From Candidatus Heimdallarchaeota archaeon (lineage in GTDB: Archaea > Asgardarchaeota > Heimdallarchaeia > Heimdallarchaeales > Heimdallarchaeaceae), in contig JAEOSZ010000026.1 of NCBI GenBank assembly GCA_016840095.1, positions 1 through 64,000 of the forward strand: a DNA stretch of 64,000 nucleotides. Reading direction: 5' to 3'. Within the stretch, counting starts at the first letter, position 1; every line of letters begins with the position of its first letter. The position numbers and the translations under genes are program-made. The notes beneath the pieces were generated by a model. That model worked only from the letters and a program-made list of their open reading frames with translations, ran no database searches and was not told the origin of the DNA. This document shows positions 1-35,247 of the stretch, in pieces.

Positions 1-393
1 TAATTCCTCAAACGAATAACCTCTTGGTGGAATAGCTTTGTTTAATTTCCTTGCAAGAGTGCTAACTATGAGGTAAGGACTTTTGTAAATTCTACAATTA
101 ATATAGACAAGTAAGAAATTTTTGTTCTTATCTATGTTCTCTAAAAGCTGACCAAAACGTTTAGCAAGGGTAGTTTTACCAGATCCTGTAGGTCCGGTTA
201 TACAAATCTTTCTCAACGGTTCGTCTTGTGCCTCGAAAATTGTCTTGAAATATTTAGCCAATGTCCTGAGTTCTTCCTCCCTATGTGGAAGATATGGAGG
301 GGTGTATGTAACAGACAAACAACCAATGTTTTTGAAGACAGTTGGTTTTTTGATTAGTGAATTAAAATATTCTTCATCTGATGAGTGCATCAT
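1..393 (-). CDS. cdc6: Cdc6/Orc1 replication initiator, N-terminal part (runs off the window start)
   Basis: Manual translation (not in the ORF track): MMHSSDEEYFNSLIKKPTVFKNIGCLSVTYTPPYLPHREEELRTL...ICITGPTGSGKTTL...LVYINCRIYKSPY. It has the Y-x-P-x-x-LPHRE motif, Walker A and YINC typical of Orc1/Cdc6. Confidence 0.92.
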   Translation of the reverse strand, partial: MMHSSDEEYFNSLIKKPTVFKNIGCLSVTYTPPYLPHREEELRTLAKYFKTIFEAQDEPLRKICITGPTGSGKTTLAKRFGQLLENIDKNKNFLLVYINCRIYKSPYLIVSTLARKLNKAIPPRGYSFEEL

Positions 394-664
394 ATCGTCT
401 CTAAGATAGTCAAGGGAATTTACTATTTATACTTAATAGAGAGACATCTCTGAAAGTGAACTCTTGTTGAAAAAAGCTCTTCCCCCTAATCTGGTTTTTG
501 TTGGGTTTAAAATAGGGTTTTGGAAAAATAGCCTTTATCGAAACTATCTGTAAGTGTTGAATGTAAAAAGTGAATTGTCTTCGTTCTTTATTTGTCAGTT
601 TTTTCTTCTTGTGTTTATGTACGCTCTTTCAGATAATATAATAGCGTTTTCCACAAGTTGAAAC

Positions 665-736
665 ATGATGTACGAACCAAAATATGATCCTGGTGAAGGA
701 GACGGCGACATTATGCCACCCGCATGGTGGCCCTAA
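665..736 (+). CDS. Small peptide 1, MMYEPKYDPGEGDGDIMPPAWWP (23 aa)
   Basis: ATG to TAA ORF, paralogous to 839-907 (15/22 identical residues, 7 synonymous codon differences), followed by a T-rich tract. Confidence 0.75.
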   Translation: MMYEPKYDPGEGDGDIMPPAWWP

Positions 737-750
737 TCGTTAGAACCTCC

Positions 751-781
751 TTTTTTCTCTTTTTCTGTCATCTTTTTCTTT
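751..781 (+). terminator. Archaeal poly-T terminator after peptide 1
   Basis: TTTTTTCTCTTTTTCTGTCATCTTTTTCTTT begins 15 nt after the stop codon. Confidence 0.55.
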
Positions 782-838
782 GGGGTGTTTTAATAGTTTT
801 ATTCTACTTTTAGAATAACCTTTCCAAAAGTGAGATAT

Positions 839-907
839 ATGTTCAAACTAAAATATGATCCTGATGATGGAGATGGCGATATACTCCCTCCAGCTTGGCA
901 TCCGTAG
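839..907 (+). CDS. Small peptide 2, MFKLKYDPDDGDGDILPPAWHP (22 aa)
   Basis: ATG to TAG ORF with a GTGA RBS-like motif just upstream; paralog of 665-736. Confidence 0.75.
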   Translation: MFKLKYDPDDGDGDILPPAWHP

Positions 908-918
908 TGAAGTTGCCA

Positions 919-938
919 TTTCTTTTTTCTATTTTTCT
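919..938 (+). terminator. Archaeal poly-T terminator after peptide 2
   Basis: TTTCTTTTTTCTATTTTTCT shortly after the stop codon. Confidence 0.55.
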
Positions 939-1064
939 AGCTAAACCGAATTTCCCTAGTTTAAATATGAAAGTTCGGATTAGATTATGAGATGTTTTCT
1001 ACTTTGTAGAATCTTCAACATCAAAATAATTGCCAAAAGTAGAAAATAGGAAATGGTGAGTTAA

Positions 1065-2645
1065 ATGAAGTTAACTGAGATTAAGCAAAAATTAAATTCT
1101 GTAAATTCAAAGATAGAGTTAAGGAAACTGTTATCTGAATTGAAGCTTCAAGCTTCTAACAATAGATCAAATGAAGATGCTATAAAATTAGTTGAAGACT
1201 TCATAGTAAAAGCAGAAAAATATGCAGATTTAGAATCTCTAGTTGTTTTGTACGGTCTTCTTATATTACAATTAGAGCACGATATTAAGAATCTGATCTT
1301 AGTGACTGAGATATTAGATAAAATGCAAAATTTATCTATAAAAATTGATTACAAAGAGGGTTTAGCTTTTTCATTTTCTTTCTCTTGGTACATTGAGAGA
1401 ATGAAAGGAAATAAGAAATTAGCTCGAAAACATATTGAAAAGTCTTATTTCTTATTAAATCAGTTAAAACAACCTGATAGTTTCATCTATCACTTCATTA
1501 GGTATTCTTACGCGATTCAAGATTGGTTAGACAATCACAATTTTCATACAGCAGAAATTTTCGAAGATTGTTTTGATTATTTTTGTAGAAATAATCTATA
1601 TCATAGTACTACAATGGCATTAGGCATATTAATCATAATCTACCAACAAGAACAAAATAAGGAAAAAACAATGGAACTAACAAGAAAGATTCTCAGTAAT
1701 AGAGAGCTTTTGACAAAAATACCTAAAGAAATGCAGTCAATTATCAATTACTTTATTGGTGTAGGTCACAAATTATCTTTTAATCTTGATGAAGCAAAGA
1801 ACTATCTACAACTTTCGCAGAAAATTCTAGAACCAATCCACAAAAGAAGTATATATTCAGGCTATTATCTTACAACTCTTTCTCACTTAACAGCTGTTTT
1901 TGCTCTACAAGGAGAACTAGAAACAGCTCTAAAAAAAATGATAGAGGTAGAAGAATCAATCAAAAAGGGTTATACAACAAAGAACCTTGATTCATTTAGT
2001 AGAAAACAAATAGAACACGACTTCAACTTAACAAAATTCTATATTAGTTCTAGATTCCAAAATTTTCAAATTGAAAGCTTATCTGATTTGGTTCAGATTA
2101 TTATAGATAATATTGGAAAACAAAACAGTAATGCGATTTTATTTAGTGAGTTTCTCTTAAATGCAAATCTTACTGAAGAACAGTTAAGGGGGATTAAGAA
2201 CTTAAATAATCCAAGCACAAGAAGAGTTGAACACATTATTAATTTTCTTATTGAGAAAACGATCAATTATGGTGAAATTCAGGTTTTGAACAGCATATCT
2301 AGGCTAAAAGGAAGACCAGTTGAAGAAAGAATGACTTTCACAGAGAAAGCTTTTGCTGATTTACTCGCTGCTCAAGAATATTATAAAATCAACCGTTTTG
2401 CAGAAATTTATCCATTGTTAAAGAAATATGAAAACCATCTTCATAGAATAGAAGTTCTTGAAATGCGTGTTTTTATGGAAGCGTTTATTCAAGTAGGAGC
2501 ATTTAAGAACGGTGATCCACTAGGACCCGCTCTGCAGTATATATCCATTAAGAAATGTAAACTATATGGTTTTAGCAGATTGGAAAATAAGTTATCAGAT
2601 TATCTCACAACTCAAGGAACCGACATAATTAGAATGATGATGTAA
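1065..2645 (+). CDS. Helical-repeat (TPR-like) protein, 526 aa
   Basis: GGTGA RBS. Amphipathic helical segments with TPR-like patterns (e.g. INYFIGVGHKLSFNLDEAKNYLQLS, TLSHLTAVFALQGELETALKKM). No catalytic motif or TM segment recognised. Confidence 0.65.
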   Translation: MKLTEIKQKLNSVNSKIELRKLLSELKLQASNNRSNEDAIKLVEDFIVKAEKYADLESLVVLYGLLILQLEHDIKNLILVTEILDKMQNLSIKIDYKEGLAFSFSFSWYIERMKGNKKLARKHIEKSYFLLNQLKQPDSFIYHFIRYSYAIQDWLDNHNFHTAEIFEDCFDYFCRNNLYHSTTMALGILIIIYQQEQNKEKTMELTRKILSNRELLTKIPKEMQSIINYFIGVGHKLSFNLDEAKNYLQLSQKILEPIHKRSIYSGYYLTTLSHLTAVFALQGELETALKKMIEVEESIKKGYTTKNLDSFSRKQIEHDFNLTKFYISSRFQNFQIESLSDLVQIIIDNIGKQNSNAILFSEFLLNANLTEEQLRGIKNLNNPSTRRVEHIINFLIEKTINYGEIQVLNSISRLKGRPVEERMTFTEKAFADLLAAQEYYKINRFAEIYPLLKKYENHLHRIEVLEMRVFMEAFIQVGAFKNGDPLGPALQYISIKKCKLYGFSRLENKLSDYLTTQGTDIIRMMM

Positions 2646-2702
2646 TTCCACTAGTTGTTCTTTTTTTCGAAATCTAGCCGAAGAGAAAAAAGACGAAATG
2701 TG

Positions 2703-2736
2703 TCTTACCACACAAAATAAATATTACGTGGTAAGA
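2703..2736. repeat. Palindromic element TCTTACCAC-N16-GTGGTAAGA, copy A
   Basis: Perfect 9-bp arms with an AT-rich 16-nt spacer; second copy at 28560-28593. Confidence 0.8.
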
Positions 2737-2835
2737 TTCTCCCATTTTAGTTCGAAATTAGTTTGAAACTCTTATAACAAAAATCATATGCCGATAAAGT
2801 TAAAAATCAGTAGGTTGGGTCTAATACATACTTAA

Positions 2836-2920
2836 GCGGAGATTGCCGAGTGGTCAAAGGCGCTAGAATGAGGATCTAGTCTTTAGTAGTCCGGGAGTTC
2901 GAATCTCCCTCTCCGCACCA
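2836..2920 (+). tRNA. tRNA-Leu(GAG)
   Basis: GCGGAGA/TCTCCGC acceptor stem, CTAGA-ATGAGGA-TCTAG anticodon arm, long variable arm, GTTCGAATC T-loop, encoded CCA. Confidence 0.95.
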
Positions 2921-2929
2921 CTTCTTACT

Positions 2930-3115
2930 TTAACCAAATAGATTTTCAAAAGAAACTTGAGACCAATCTATCAGGCTCATTATAATCCCAAAGATTATAG
3001 CAAAAATCAATATAGCTATGCCTATTAATAGAATTTCTTCTAATATAGGTCCTCCTCTTTTCTTTTTGAAAAGTAATTCCTTTATCCCTTGTAATAACAT
3101 TAACATAATTCTCAT
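2930..3115 (-). CDS. Class III signal peptide protein (Flp-like mini-pilin)
   Basis: KKKRG/GPILEE followed by a ~20 aa hydrophobic helix, with Glu at +5. The real start may be a downstream Met. Confidence 0.65.
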   Translation of the reverse strand: MRIMLMLLQGIKELLFKKKRGGPILEEILLIGIAILIFAIIFGIIMSLIDWSQVSFENLFG

Positions 3116-3259
3116 TATTTGTATTAATGTCGATATTTAAACTCCACAAAACGATTTGTAACACTCTAGAGTACTCTAGCCAGCTTTTAGTTGATGCTCA
3201 AAACACTTGAAGATGGAAAACCTTTTTTAGTAATATCATTGGGTCGGATATAGAATCCT

Positions 3260-4105
3260 TTGCCGGGTGTGTCTATGGATATTGAACTTATAGAGTTATT
3301 TCCAAATTCGATAAAATTTGTATTGTCAGATGTGACATTAGCATTTGCTAATGCAATCAGAAGAACAGCTTTAGCTGAAGTTCCATCATTGACCATTGAA
3401 GATGTATATGTTTTGAAGAACACATCTCCTTTGTTTGATGAATTTATAGCACACAGATTAGGATTGATACCATTAAAGTTTGATATTGATGCTCTTGAAT
3501 TAAACTTCAGAGATGAATGTGACTGTGGGGGAATAGGGTGTAACTTATGCACAGTAACATTAACTCTCTCAAAAGAAACAGACGCTCAAGGATCAACTTT
3601 CGTTTATAGTTCAGATTTGATTTCAACCCAAGCTGGCGTTGAACCTATCAGTCCTACAATTCCTATTGTGAAACTAGGACCAAATCAATCTCTAGAACTA
3701 GAGTGCATGGCACAATTAGGCAAAGGAAAGGAACATGCAAAGTGGCAACCTGTTTCTGCCATGGGTTACCAAGCATTTCCAGTACCAAAAATAGATAAGG
3801 AAAAATGTACCAATTGTTTAGAATGTATAGATGCATGCTATAGGGGAGTTTACCAAAAGTCAGGGGATAAAGTAGAAGTCGCTAATCCTTTAAATTGCAC
3901 ACTGTGTGATTACTGTCTAGAGAGTTGCGAACCAAATGCAATAACTATAGGCAAAGATTCTTCAAAAGTTATTTTTTCCTTTGAAACAAATGGAGGATTA
4001 GATCCATCTACAGTATTAACTAAAGCTGGAGAATTAATTCTCTCTAAAATCGACGAATTCAAAAAGACTCTTGAATCAACATTGGCAGAGAAAAAAGAAT
4101 CATAA
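3260..4105 (+). CDS. rpoD: RNA polymerase subunit D (Rpo3) with ferredoxin-like insert
   Basis: FANAIRR, FDEFIAHRLGLIPL, GKEHAKW; two CxxCxxCxxxC motifs. Likely start is MDIELIE at 3275. Confidence 0.96.
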   Translation: MPGVSMDIELIELFPNSIKFVLSDVTLAFANAIRRTALAEVPSLTIEDVYVLKNTSPLFDEFIAHRLGLIPLKFDIDALELNFRDECDCGGIGCNLCTVTLTLSKETDAQGSTFVYSSDLISTQAGVEPISPTIPIVKLGPNQSLELECMAQLGKGKEHAKWQPVSAMGYQAFPVPKIDKEKCTNCLECIDACYRGVYQKSGDKVEVANPLNCTLCDYCLESCEPNAITIGKDSSKVIFSFETNGGLDPSTVLTKAGELILSKIDEFKKTLESTLAEKKES

Positions 4106-31529: not shown

Positions 31530-32710
31530 GAACAATGTTAGATTCTCTTCCAGTACCTCTGATTACTTCAGAATTGAGAAAATATCTAGAGGAGCTCCTT
31601 GGAAAAGAAACAGCTGAAAGTTACTTAAGAGCAATTTGTACACCAATGGAAGAATATACACTCCATATATTTAGGAAACAAGAACTTGCAGAAGACATTA
31701 TAGAACACATTAAGAAATTTACTTTCAAAGCTTACCAACATTCTACTTTTACCAACTTAATAATTACAGAACCTAAAGGTCCTTTTGAAATAGATTTTAC
31801 GGAAGAATTGAAGGAAATTGTAGTGGATAATGTTGCAGCAGAGATGATTTATCAAGGATCTGATGTTTTTGTTCCTGGAATTAAACGTGCAAATAAAGTA
31901 AAGGAGAACGATTTAGTAATTGTAAAGAACCAGAAGGGAATTCCAGTGGCTAAAGCCAAAGCATTGATGAGTCATAACAAGATTTTGTCAAAGAAAAAGG
32001 GTATTGCAGCAATCAATTTGGAGTCAACATATAGGGTTCCCAGTGTTCCTCAATTGGGATTATATGAGTTTCCAGTTTATTTTCATAGTATGCCTGCTTA
32101 CCTAGCAAGTTTAAATCTAGACCCTCAACCTGGAGAGAAAGTGTTGGATTGTTGTGCTGCACCAGGAAACAAAACTATACACTTGAGTGAACTAATGGGG
32201 AACAGAGGAGAGATAATAGCAATAGATAGATCCAAAAGAAGATTACAGAGTCTGGAAGAGAAGATAAAGAAATTTGAAATAAAAAACATCAAAACTGTTG
32301 TAGGAAGTATCATTGATTTGAGTAAGGAATGGAATTTGAAATTTGATAAAATACTAGTTGATCCCCCTTGCACTGCTCTTGGTTTGAGACCTAGACTTAC
32401 TCTTGAAGTTAATCGCAGAATAATTGAATCATCTGCAGATTACCAAAAAGCTATTCTATTTGCATGTAATAAATTATTGAAACCTAGTGGTGAATTAGTT
32501 TATTCTACCTGTACAATTACAAAAGAAGAAAATGAAGATGTTGTAAATCATGCCTTGAAATTTGGCTTAGAAATAATTCATCAACCAAATAATGTTTCAA
32601 CAATGGGATCTATTGGTACTGAAATACCTATACCTGTGCAAAGGTTTGTTCCTGGACAAGATAAGACTTTGGGCTTTTTTATAGCCAAATTAAAGAAACC
32701 TGGGAGTTAA
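31526..32710 (+). CDS. RsmB/NOP2-family RNA m5C methyltransferase with PUA domain (NSUN6-like)
   Basis: PUA (GSDVFVPGI), DCCAAPGNKT, DPPC, YSTCT. Confidence 0.9.
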   Translation: MRTMLDSLPVPLITSELRKYLEELLGKETAESYLRAICTPMEEYTLHIFRKQELAEDIIEHIKKFTFKAYQHSTFTNLIITEPKGPFEIDFTEELKEIVVDNVAAEMIYQGSDVFVPGIKRANKVKENDLVIVKNQKGIPVAKAKALMSHNKILSKKKGIAAINLESTYRVPSVPQLGLYEFPVYFHSMPAYLASLNLDPQPGEKVLDCCAAPGNKTIHLSELMGNRGEIIAIDRSKRRLQSLEEKIKKFEIKNIKTVVGSIIDLSKEWNLKFDKILVDPPCTALGLRPRLTLEVNRRIIESSADYQKAILFACNKLLKPSGELVYSTCTITKEENEDVVNHALKFGLEIIHQPNNVSTMGSIGTEIPIPVQRFVPGQDKTLGFFIAKLKKPGS

Positions 32711-32751
32711 TACCGAACCTTTTTTAATTTCTGCACTTTCTTTTACATGAA

Positions 32752-33606
32752 ATGAGTTTTTTGAAGAAAGACGCATGTATTTTGATTACTAGTTCAAGAC
32801 ACAAGGATAGTATAGAACTAGCTTTATCTTTTCATGAAAAATTATTGGAAAAGGGGTATACTTCATTCCTAGATATATTCCTAGCAGAGAAAATTAAGAA
32901 ACCTGAGTTTGCATGTTCTGATGAAGAACCCACAATAATCTTCGTTTTTGGAGGAGATGGAACTATTCTCAAAACCCATGAGTTGTGGAGAAATTCTCCT
33001 ATTTTTGGGATTAATTGTGGAAAAGTTGGTTTTCTTACAGAAATTGATCCGGAGGAAATTGATCAAGCATTGGTTTCTCTCGAAAAAGGTGAAGGTTTTG
33101 TTGAAAGTTACAGCACAATTAAGATATCCTCAAAGAACTCATCAACAACCTCAGCAGTCAATGATGTAGTTGTAACTGCTGATAAAATAGGTCAATCTAT
33201 AAGCCTGAAACTGCATGTAGATAATCAGTATGTCTACACTCTTGATGGTGACGGTCTAATTGTAGCAACTAGTATAGGATCAAGTGCTTATGGTCTTTCA
33301 GCAGGGGGTTCATTAATCGTTCCAGCAGTTGAAGCAATAATAACAGTTCCAATATGTCCTTTTTCTAGAAGAGTGGTTCCCATGGTTTTTCCTTTAAGCT
33401 CTAAGTTGGAAGTAACAAATCTGAGCAAATCCAAAAATGGGAGTGTTGTAGTAGATGGAAAAGTAATCTATGAGATTGGGTATAAAGAATCAATCGAGAT
33501 TGAGAAATCGGAAGAAAAAATAAATTTCATTCGATTTTCAGAGAATTACATAACTAGAGTTAGAGAAAAACTTCTACGATTCAATCCTGATGATACAGAT
33601 GAATGA
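32752..33606 (+). CDS. NAD(+) kinase
   Basis: GGDGT, GINCGKVGFL, DGLIVATSIGSSAYGLSAGG. Confidence 0.9.
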   Translation: MSFLKKDACILITSSRHKDSIELALSFHEKLLEKGYTSFLDIFLAEKIKKPEFACSDEEPTIIFVFGGDGTILKTHELWRNSPIFGINCGKVGFLTEIDPEEIDQALVSLEKGEGFVESYSTIKISSKNSSTTSAVNDVVVTADKIGQSISLKLHVDNQYVYTLDGDGLIVATSIGSSAYGLSAGGSLIVPAVEAIITVPICPFSRRVVPMVFPLSSKLEVTNLSKSKNGSVVVDGKVIYEIGYKESIEIEKSEEKINFIRFSENYITRVREKLLRFNPDDTDE

Positions 33607-34117
33607 AGACAATAACAATAAAAAGCTAAATTATTTCATAGTTGATTCTACTGCGATAATTCATCATTTTGTACTTGAAAATGAGCTACAGAATAACGAT
33701 ATTCTTCTTATTCCTGAATTATTGGTAGATGAATTAAAATCATCAGTTTCAAAAGCAGTTTTAACAGTATTAGAAGCAGAGGATAAGATAATACACATTG
33801 ATCCATCTTCGAAATCTATTGAAAAAATTACCGGAATAGCAAAAGAAACTGGGGATTTTACAGCATTATCTGAAATTGATCTTCAAGTACTAGCTTTATC
33901 ATTAGATTTTCCTGGTTCTGTAATCTATAGTGATGATAATGCAGTTCAAAATGTTTGTAAGAAGTTAGATATAAAATTTGAAACCTTTCAATTCAAAATA
34001 AAACATCAACGTGAATACTTTTGGAAATGTACTGTTTGTAAAAGTAAATTTACACGTAAATTTGAAAACTGTCCTGATTGCGGGAGTCCCATAAAACGAT
34101 ATTTCAAGAAGAAATGA
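33590..34117 (+). CDS. nob1: Nob1-like PIN endonuclease with Zn ribbon
   Basis: VDST, TGD..LS.ID, SDD.AVQN, CTVC...CPDCG. Confidence 0.88.
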   Translation: MIQMNEDNNNKKLNYFIVDSTAIIHHFVLENELQNNDILLIPELLVDELKSSVSKAVLTVLEAEDKIIHIDPSSKSIEKITGIAKETGDFTALSEIDLQVLALSLDFPGSVIYSDDNAVQNVCKKLDIKFETFQFKIKHQREYFWKCTVCKSKFTRKFENCPDCGSPIKRYFKKK

Positions 34118-34134
34118 AGGAAAAGCTATTTTTC

Positions 34135-35247
34135 TTAATGCATGGTTTCTAGAGCTTCTATTATAGCTAGTATAAATCTCTCATTTGTAGGTGTGTCCCC
34201 TAAAGTAACAAGAAAAGATTTTTTCCTATCCTTGAAAGTATGGCCTTCTCTGAATATTTTAACTATTATCCCCTTACTACAAAGCTGTTCAAAAAGATCA
34301 GTTATATCCTCCTTGTATCTTATGAAAAGGAAGTTGGCATCTGTTCGGAAAACTGTTAATCCGTTAACCATCTTCAAATGTTCAATTACTCGTTTTCTTT
34401 CTACAATGAAGTTGTTTATTAATTCAACAAATTTATACGGTGCTTGAAGGATATGAGTAGTTGCTAAGATGTGGATTGGGGGGATCTCTTCCAAAATATA
34501 TTGTTTCTTCAGCAAATTAATATATTTTGAATCCGATACAAGATAAGCAGAAGAGGTTGCTCCTAGTCCCCATGCTTTTGCAAAAGATCGAATAACTGTT
34601 AGATTATCAAAGTACTTAACTTGATTTATCAGACTATATTTTCCAAATTCAACGTACGATTCATCTACAATAATAGGTATTTTGAGTTCTCTTGTAAGTG
34701 TAAGAACATCTCCTTCATCAAATTGATTTGCAGTAGGATAGTGTGGCGAAGAAAAAACAATAGCCTTTGGAGATATTTCCTCTGTTAGTTCTATTATAGC
34801 ATTCACATCTAGTTCAAAATTATCAATCAAACTGACTTTGTGAATGTTAAGTTTCTGATTTTGAGCGATTTCATCATAAATACCCTTATCAGGAGAAAGT
34901 AGAATGATATCGTTTTTTCTCTTTGTTGTAATAGATATAATTCTTTGTAGGAGTTGAGTATGGGTCACTCCAGGATAGATTGTAGATGCTTCAACACCTG
35001 CAAATCGTGAAATTTCTTCGATGAAGGAATAATAATCTATTGGATAACTGTCTCTTGGATCTATGGAATCAATTGTTTTTGTTATGATTTTCTGAACATG
35101 AGAAGGAGGAACAAATAAATTATCACCTAAACTAAGGTCAAGTATTTGATCAATGTTTAAATCGAATTTTTCAACAATTTCCTGATGTCTCTTCAAACGA
35201 TCAAGAGCATTCTTAGTTATGGAAATCCTGTTAGACAGTTGTTTCAC
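34135..35247 (-). CDS. HisC-like class I/II PLP aminotransferase, degenerate
   Basis: VDESYVEF, RSFAKAWG and ANFLF are present, but several catalytic motifs are altered. Confidence 0.75.
   Translation of the reverse strand: MKQLSNRISITKNALDRLKRHQEIVEKFDLNIDQILDLSLGDNLFVPPSHVQKIITKTIDSIDPRDSYPIDYYSFIEEISRFAGVEASTIYPGVTHTQLLQRIISITTKRKNDIILLSPDKGIYDEIAQNQKLNIHKVSLIDNFELDVNAIIELTEEISPKAIVFSSPHYPTANQFDEGDVLTLTRELKIPIIVDESYVEFGKYSLINQVKYFDNLTVIRSFAKAWGLGATSSAYLVSDSKYINLLKKQYILEEIPPIHILATTHILQAPYKFVELINNFIVERKRVIEHLKMVNGLTVFRTDANFLFIRYKEDITDLFEQLCSKGIIVKIFREGHTFKDRKKSFLVTLGDTPTNERFILAIIEALETMH

Follow-up and report, generated by a model that had tools for sequence, protein, structure and literature searches.

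Micropeptide genes probably matched to TPR superhelix proteins in Heimdallarchaeaceae: a candidate lock-and-key cassette

What might two very short open reading frames (ORFs) be doing ahead of a gene for a soluble tetratricopeptide repeat (TPR) protein of 526 amino acids (aa) in an Asgard archaeon? The question is raised by the first lines of a window of 64,000 nucleotides (nt) from a Candidatus Heimdallarchaeota archaeon (assembly GCA_016840095.1, contig JAEOSZ010000026.1, positions 1 to 64,000), which is contig C152 of a 3.44-Mb bin with an assembly completeness of 89%. An earlier note, made from the sequence alone, had proposed that the short ORFs encode peptides that are bound by the TPR protein, as in the RRNPP systems of bacteria and phages. 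Our analysis indicates that such peptide-protein sets are very probably matched lock-and-key pairs, as read from their co-varying residues, and the overall explanation that we favour, with moderate confidence, is a two-gene lock-and-key cassette with intracellular control by the peptide. As that note had described, the peptide ORFs and the 526-aa ORF are all present on the plus strand, divergent from an orc1/cdc6-type AAA+ gene on the minus strand. The features are as follows (signals are read from the sequence unless another source is given):

1-393, minus strand: 5' part of the orc1/cdc6-type AAA+ gene (407 aa in relatives; Pfam AAA_16/AAA_22), its start identical in loci L001, L003, L008 and L010
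593-621, plus strand: promoter-like module of peptide gene 1 (TGTCA at 593-597, TATA-like box at 614-621), with a putative promoter role
656-661, plus strand: weak Shine-Dalgarno (SD)-like site of peptide gene 1, AGTTGA
665-736, plus strand: peptide gene 1, 23 aa, C-terminus PPAWWP, Trp-type (ORF list, peptide model)
751-795, plus strand: T-rich, terminator-like tract that overlaps the promoter-like module of peptide gene 2 (sequence, repeat families D1 and D2)
766-770 and 788-795, plus strand: promoter-like module of peptide gene 2 (TGTCA and TTTTAATA, respectively)
829-834, plus strand: SD-like site of peptide gene 2, AGTGAG (sequence, family conservation)
839-907, plus strand: peptide gene 2, 22 aa, C-terminus PPAWHP, His-type (ORF list); a start at the alternative in-frame GTG (830) would lengthen it to 25 aa
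919-938, plus strand: T-rich tract 3' of peptide gene 2, archaeal terminator-like, a putative function
1055-1060, plus strand: SD-like site of the TPR gene, GGTGAG
1065-2645, plus strand: soluble TPR superhelix protein of 526 aa (ORF, fold prediction, structure searches)

The short ORFs at 665-736 and 839-907 are, by their pattern of sequence conservation, real and selected genes of a conserved family of acidic peptides (18-25 aa) that share the motif YDP..GD..IxPPxWxP. The motif is not a product of chance, because it has four copies in the 3.44-Mb genome and none in each of three shuffles, and all four copies flank a member of the TPR protein family. The residues that never vary (Asp, Pro-Pro, Trp and Pro) use the full range of synonymous codons across 120 distinct copies of the family; dN/dS is 0.096 (42 disjoint pairs), with 46, 32 and 197 differences at codon positions 1, 2 and 3, respectively. 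Since the differences sit at third codon positions and the lengths vary by whole codons, a reading of this DNA as a non-coding repeat or transposon end was dropped. The expression signals recur throughout the family: 94 of 100 nearest-peptide genes have an SD-like motif ahead of them, 109 of the 170 upstream regions of the family contain a TGTCA element, nearly always 70-99 nt 5' of the YDP codon and followed by a TATA-like box (the looser TGT[CTG]A is present in 15% of other upstream regions), and the fraction of T is 0.55-0.70 at 12-30 nt past the stop codon. We infer that each peptide gene has its own promoter. A scan for sigma-70 promoters and intrinsic terminators, with models ill-suited to archaea, gave chance levels. 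Peptide genes 1 and 2 constitute a tandem unit of 171-173 nt that includes upstream DNA, with 60 nt at 78% identity. In another locus (L055: 5428-5469, 7516-7557 and 7732-7773) the 3' end of an M42 aminopeptidase gene is present three times, and each copy continues into a peptide gene's TGTCA element, as would be left by tandem duplication or insertion.

The absence of a secretion signal, which had been remarked on for the two peptides of the window, extends to the family: a search of 117 peptides by hydropathy and charge detected none, and the peptides are acidic and hydrophilic (mean grand average of hydropathicity, or GRAVY, -1.09; mean net charge -3.9; highest 7-residue hydropathy 1.54). 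The idea that they might bind Ca2+ or Mg2+ was dropped, with the motif Dx[DN]xDG present in only 5 of the 117.

The predicted partner of these peptides is a TPR superhelix in its AlphaFold2 model (106 homologues; pLDDT 92.8; 28 helices), a fold that is clear, although its family membership is not. Top matches in the structure searches were APC5, APPBP2, phage phi105 Rap, NprR, RapI, LGN and MalT (Z 16.6-19.6, rmsd 4-8, 9-14% identity). The match to phi105 Rap (VIA Z 18.5, rmsd 6.3, 326 aligned within residues 20-382, 13% identity) is within about 1-2 Z of those to APC5, APPBP2, NprR and RapI, and the structural identity of 9-14% to the Bacillota receptors, which bears on common descent with them, is level with that to unrelated TPR proteins. 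The earlier description of the protein as soluble, all-helical and without an enzyme motif agrees with the searches: no membrane-spanning segment shows up in a hydropathy scan (maximum over 19 residues 1.28), sequence searches of Pfam, NCBIfam, PADLOC and PDB assigned the protein to no family, whether helix-turn-helix (HTH), enzyme or defence, and structure searches found no catalytic fold. Pfam on the single sequence gave no TPR match either. The N-terminus consists of long repeat helices that align with TPRs from residue 13-20 onward. A profile search of 1.84 billion representatives returned 102 hits, with no RRNPP protein among the annotated ones; ten weak hits that were examined are unannotated relatives or generic TPR_12/MalT-type proteins. 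Fold searches gave generic TPR_12 clusters only (ESM Atlas) and generic TPR/Sel1 matches only (BFVD).

Two regions can be distinguished in the protein. Residues from about 16 to 440 constitute a variable groove that co-varies with the peptide, and residues from about 420 to 525 a conserved helical module (mean identity 56-74%, versus 23-48% elsewhere), which is a candidate output or dimerisation part. Folded alone, this module matches generic helical repeats only (best Z 11.8); language-model features liken the C-terminal part to ComR_TPR/Rgg_C (0.94-0.95), and in fold it is similar to PlcR/Rgg2, at a Z of about 11 that is inside the generic helical-repeat range. Peptide-linked proteins retain N32 in 96-100% of cases, versus 30% for homologues that have no peptide.

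The evidence for matching comes from 84 core proteins, each taken with its nearest peptide and with overall identity removed. About 15 variable peptide positions (W denotes the invariant Trp) track separate protein segments in reverse, that is, antiparallel order: W+3 tracks 31/68/109; W+1 tracks 64/68/71/102/105/106/109; W-1 tracks 180/181/184; W-4 tracks 267/268; W-6 tracks 229/233/274; W-7 tracks 316/319; and the residues after YDP track 385-439. The rank correlation between peptide and protein positions is -0.91 (rho), and the top co-varying columns include 20 on the groove-lining A helices versus 1 on the B helices; neither value was reached in 300 neutral simulations on the protein tree. 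In the parts of the protein with an unambiguous TPR register, columns 102/105/106/109/112 and 226/229/233/236/237 coincide with TPR positions 2, 5, 6, 9, 12 and 13, which are known to contact ligands (PMC1261162). In a prediction test that selected columns from the training data alone and omitted entire 65%-identity clusters (baseline 15/84), groove residues predicted the post-Trp residue in 73 of the 84 cases, versus 23 by the nearest whole protein, and four residues suffice for that result. At loci with two peptides, the pocket predicts the nearest peptide in 32/37 and the second in 4/37. The pairings are chemically sensible: E71 occurs with Arg/His (19/21), K/R68 with C-terminally extended peptides (33/37), the small S64 with Trp (8/8), D319 with Gly (10/10) and N267 with Thr (23/23). 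The same pocket-peptide pairs recur on separate branches, and there are single swaps within clades, among them E71 to I with His to Leu, and N105 to Y with Arg to Thr. Exceptions to the code are locus L006 (3665-3894), where the protein matches the second and not the nearest peptide, and L054 (4192-4356), where the matching peptide has no stop codon; both are candidate transition states.

For the window, the code points to one of the two peptides. Because the 526-aa protein carries G64/L68/E71/S105, and G64/L68/E71 is the signature of all 9 His-type nearest-peptide pairs (this one included), the peptide encoded at 839-907 is predicted to be its cognate ligand. D319 likewise fits Gly at W-7, and H180/S181/M184 fit Ala at W-1; R386/Y439, one weaker column pair, fits peptide 665-736 better. 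All 8 proteins with a Trp-type nearest peptide have Ser64, the 526-aa protein has Gly64, and no Ser64 partner for peptide 665-736 was found in the 89%-complete assembly, so that by the code this peptide is predicted to be a non-cognate spare or the relic of a displaced paralogue. The adjacent, RRNPP-like pairing proposed earlier is strongly supported by strict co-occurrence and groove co-variation; that both peptides are variant ligands is not supported, because 665-736 is Trp-type while the protein has a His-type pocket, and only 839-907 matches. Elsewhere, 39 peptides are stacked and 13 stand alone. Such spares may be left over from deleted alleles, may be transient duplicates through which a shift in specificity is made easier (whole-gene duplication of phr has been described as such a transient step; PMC5199041) or may be retained antidotes. 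A distal peptide common to genomes G015 and G009 has 7 nt differences and 0 amino acid changes, a single case that hints at continued selection.

How the pairs are distributed bears on what they might do. The protein family is limited to the taxonomic family of the window (27/30 genomes, versus 0/16 in other families of the order), and the peptide model matches 25 of 400 Asgard genomes, in two Heimdallarchaeaceae genera; the peptide-bearing genomes are the same ones that hold the peptide-linked protein clades. A genome can have as many as 11 protein matches and 19 peptides, with the proteins in tandem arrays at a few slots; the protein counts are lower bounds, since a search with the 526-aa protein misses some copies of the second clade described here. 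Three groups can be recognized. The core clade (525 aa) has an intact upstream peptide gene in 79 of 79 intact genes with upstream DNA. In the 560-aa clade, which adjoins a gene for a membrane HerA-type ATPase, the peptide gene is usually downstream and convergent, 30-60 nt from the stop codon, and often the only copy. The deeper homologues (550-575 aa) have no peptide, and two closed genomes of the family are also without peptides. The outcome that the earlier note had named as fatal to its proposal, homologues that generally lack adjacent peptide ORFs, was not found for the two peptide-linked clades. Among the core pairs, 12/84 occupy the cdc6 slot, where alleles differ between species, and the other slots adjoin pyrophosphatase, M42 peptidase, ABC transporter, rpl3/rpl4 and HerA genes. 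In the neighbourhoods examined, the cassette has no further constant member, be it a transporter gene, a protease gene or any other, and a search of viral contigs with cassette patterns yielded no relative.

We regard it as highly probable that the whole acidic Pro/Trp peptide binds, extended and antiparallel, in the groove of its cognate protein. The C-terminus of the peptide would lie near N32/64/68/71/105/109, its PPxW core on Y147/W154/Y193, which are invariant, and the acidic part (YDP..GD) would point to residues 315-440. With regard to the consequence of binding, we lean slightly toward a peptide that is neither processed nor exported and that, in trans and within the cell, serves as an allele-specific off-switch in the manner of Phr and Rap. 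Without its ligand, the protein would act on a common cellular partner via the conserved C-terminal module and the matching peptide would hold it inactive, such that the supply or turnover of peptide would set the output. Cassettes would be swapped and recombined among a few chromosomal slots, with old peptides left in place after the replacement or loss of a protein allele. The downstream-only, convergent peptide genes of the 560-aa clade favour action in trans. The off-switch direction is suggested because slots with only a peptide exist, while intact core proteins are never without one.

Several points weigh against this explanation. The direction of the switch is drawn from the loss asymmetry only, which is itself weak: broken genes number 11 proteins versus 1 nearest peptide beside an intact protein, and these counts add nothing, because a 22-fold difference in gene length gives about the same result. 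Taken singly, positions W-1, W-4, W-5 and D+3 fail the tree null (p 0.06-0.29) and are predicted equally well by whole-protein similarity. Since the proteins are mosaics, with uncorrelated identities for residues 20-135 and 255-400 (r 0.02), linkage blocks supply part of the co-variation signal. The groove is assigned from secondary structure and TPR register rather than coordinates, and the genomes are incomplete metagenome bins. Prediction of the complexes, which we count neither for nor against the explanation, gave scores of 0.31, 0.11 and 0.20 against a mark of 0.32, with no controls folded and with 8 non-peptide codons included in the 30-residue frame (815-904) of the first row.

Two other readings of the pairs are serious rivals, each of which we consider rather unlikely. 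The peptides might be leaderless pheromones that leave the cell by some unconventional or novel route and are re-imported, with the proteins as kin-specific receptors in an archaeal quorum-sensing system like the Rap-Phr pherotypes. The many fast-diversifying matched pairs per genome, the single promoter-like module common to all peptide genes and the existence of leaderless signals in Firmicutes (PMC10518010) are all in keeping with such a system, as are whole-gene peptide duplications like those of phr, for which locus L006 resembles an intermediate. The peptides themselves, however, have no signal sequence and are strongly acidic and hydrophilic, their co-variation spans about 15 residues versus the 5-8 aa of processed signals, the cassette includes no constant transporter or protease gene, and peptide-only slots exceed receptor-only ones, whereas B. 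subtilis has orphan receptors.

The second serious rival, which is a strong form of the explanation that we favour and in our opinion is also improbable, is a poison-antidote or self/non-self cassette, in which the unliganded TPR protein would be harmful, the peptide would be an immunity factor, and retained non-cognate peptides would protect against alleles of relatives that arrive by DNA transfer. It would account for a gene order with the antidote first and for the different alleles that occupy the same slot across species with former peptides retained. The 7 peptides but 2 proteins within 80 kb of G009:C12, the distal peptide of G015 and G009 and a dN/dS of about 0.1 for non-cognate peptides also fit, although the divergence of most non-cognate pairs may date from when they were still cognate. 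The position of the 560-aa clade beside the HerA-type ATPase, which has a weak CedD match, can be cited in its favour, but that ATPase is family-wide and is found in peptide-less genomes as well. No toxic domain was recognised by Pfam, NCBIfam, PADLOC or fold, searches that a novel toxin could escape, and a mobile-element or viral context was sought and not found.

The remaining alternatives are far weaker. A pair like those of ribosomally synthesized and post-translationally modified peptides, in which the large protein would modify or chaperone a precursor peptide, is very unlikely: a conserved short peptide with variable positions beside a dedicated protein, and core-clade invariant residues H318, H390, E362, E427 and R387, would be in keeping with such a pair, but these residues are not kept in the 560-aa clade, no enzyme family match or catalytic fold was found, and neither a leader/core split nor a constant exporter is seen. 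We also find it very improbable that peptide and protein do not interact and that genetic linkage, with nested recombination tracts, produces the antiparallel pattern. The mosaic proteins would allow this, and the N-terminal region minus its A helices still predicts the post-Trp residue in 44/84; but 8 groove-face columns give 73/84, versus a mean of 25 and a maximum of 35 for random non-A column sets, the same pairs recur on separate branches, single swaps occur within clades, and linkage does not account for the 79/79 retention of peptides. Regulation of replication initiation through Orc1/Cdc6, a connection that had been raised for this module, is very doubtful as well. The window slot is divergent from the gene at 1-393, which we take to be cdc6 from a known N-terminal motif, and the main array region is near a second cdc6; against this, only 12/84 core pairs are at the cdc6 slot, the other slots adjoin the various genes named above, and the second-cdc6 region of the window genome has no cassette. 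The gene at 1-393 probably just marks one of several cassette slots and is not a component of the system. Least probable is that the peptide, as a cis-acting leader or by arresting the ribosome (PPxWxP-stop), governs read-through to the TPR gene, as the upstream position in the core clade, the Pro-Pro-x-Trp-x-Pro end and the T-rich tract might suggest: a purely cis-acting leader, obligately upstream on the same transcript, is ruled out because the downstream-only copies of the 560-aa clade are convergent, peptide-only slots also speak against it, and the co-variation of the groove in the protein product would be left unexplained.

Comparison with known systems places the two-gene lock-and-key cassette closest in its workings to Rap-Phr, with which it shares a cytosolic TPR superhelix that has no HTH, a small peptide gene beside it, numerous matched pairs of paralogues in a genome and whole-gene peptide duplications (PMC5199041). 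It differs in that the archaeal peptides have no secretion signal or processing, make a predicted acidic Pro/Trp contact of about 15 residues versus 5-8 aa, and are encoded upstream or convergently; in addition, the protein has an extra conserved C-terminal module, and the orphan loci are peptide-only, not receptor-only. RRNPPA propeptides are defined by a hydrophobic secretion signal and processing to a signal of 5-8 aa (PMC10518010). The archaeal system has the TPR-built cytosolic receptor and the adjacent cognate peptide gene of that class, and lacks such a propeptide and also the N-terminal HTH, which is optional and absent in Rap. It works like Rap-Phr but is not classed as RRNPP, because the secretion and processing feature is missing and common descent is not established. 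A TPR receptor with a neighbouring peptide gene is likewise found in NprR-NprX, PlcR-PapR, AimR-AimP, Rgg-SHP and ComR-ComS (structural matches to NprR, Z 17.1, and AimR, Z 15.0), but these systems have a DNA-binding HTH, which was not found in the archaeal protein, and exported, processed peptides. RopB-SIP is similar in having a peptide gene without a signal sequence, overlooked by gene callers, beside a TPR receptor (PMC10518010); SIP, in contrast to the strongly acidic archaeal peptides of 18-25 aa, has 8 aa and binds an HTH transcription activator, and the leaderless communication class of ultra-short peptides with RopB-clan HTH receptors does not include the present system.

Eukaryotic TPR scaffolds of the LGN, APPBP2, APC5 and KLC types bind long extended or C-terminal peptides in their groove. 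Those that were compared here (LGN-Inscuteable/NuMA, the C-degron reader APPBP2, APC5 and KLC) include APC5 at Z 19.6, APPBP2 at Z 18.8 and LGN at Z 16.8; their ligands are motifs in other proteins and not dedicated adjacent micropeptides, and a fold in common does not speak for descent. Type II toxin-antitoxin and polymorphic toxin-immunity systems have in common with the cassette a small partner encoded first, matched alleles, retained orphan partners and allele swapping at fixed slots, and differ in that no toxin domain was recognised in the archaeal protein.

No published account of a dedicated peptide-TPR receptor system in archaea was found, in an incomplete coverage of the literature. 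If the binding is true, more than 80 matched peptide-receptor pairs would constitute a natural set with a specificity code that can be read position by position, testable in vitro without a cultured host, and would serve as a model for the evolution of TPR specificity and a source of orthogonal peptide-binding parts. Asgard archaea would then use unannotated micropeptides for allele-specific control, which raises the question of kin signalling or discrimination. A tentative extension, for which we see a distinct though less than even chance, is an independently evolved archaeal system of self/non-self or cell-to-cell recognition, in which a combinatorial micropeptide code would be read by a TPR groove, alleles would be swapped at fixed slots, and spares would be a memory of, or a signal to, other alleles; such a system would sit in close prokaryotic relatives of the eukaryotes.

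The window genome has a second cassette, on contig C117 (locus L011), with a paralogue of 561 aa that is distant from the 526-aa protein and divergent from a membrane HerA-type ATPase gene; its two peptide genes are near-identical, one upstream and one convergent:

1868-1930, plus strand: peptide gene
1973-3658, minus strand: 561-aa paralogue
3781-3837, minus strand: peptide gene

A weak third homologue (E 1.8e-10 with a broad profile) lies on contig C159 at 32364-34178 (minus strand), with no peptide match nearby. The membrane-anchored HerA/DUF87 ATPase has about 945 aa (L049:14587-16998, L154-L165) and a weak CedD match, E 6e-16, which is far below the cut-off. Throughout the family its gene is conserved, ahead of a gene of 213 aa, and the cassette is beside it in 9/12 loci; as a dedicated third component it was rejected, being present in 27/30 family genomes, including those without peptides. 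The peptide-less homologues of 550-575 aa at loci L063, L065, L067 and L068 have a fixed place behind a gene for a 706-aa beta-CASP metallo-beta-lactamase and are possible ancestors of the peptide-linked clades. Directly downstream of the TPR gene, the window continues with tRNA-Leu(GAG) at 2836-2920 (plus strand) and, at 2930-3115 (minus strand), an ORF of 61 aa in which a basic stretch, Gly, a Glu at +5 and then a hydrophobic run resemble a class III (pilin-type) signal peptide. The gene at 3260-4105 (plus strand), for RNA polymerase subunit D with a 4Fe-4S dicluster insert, starts a run of ribosomal-protein genes and is ordinary.

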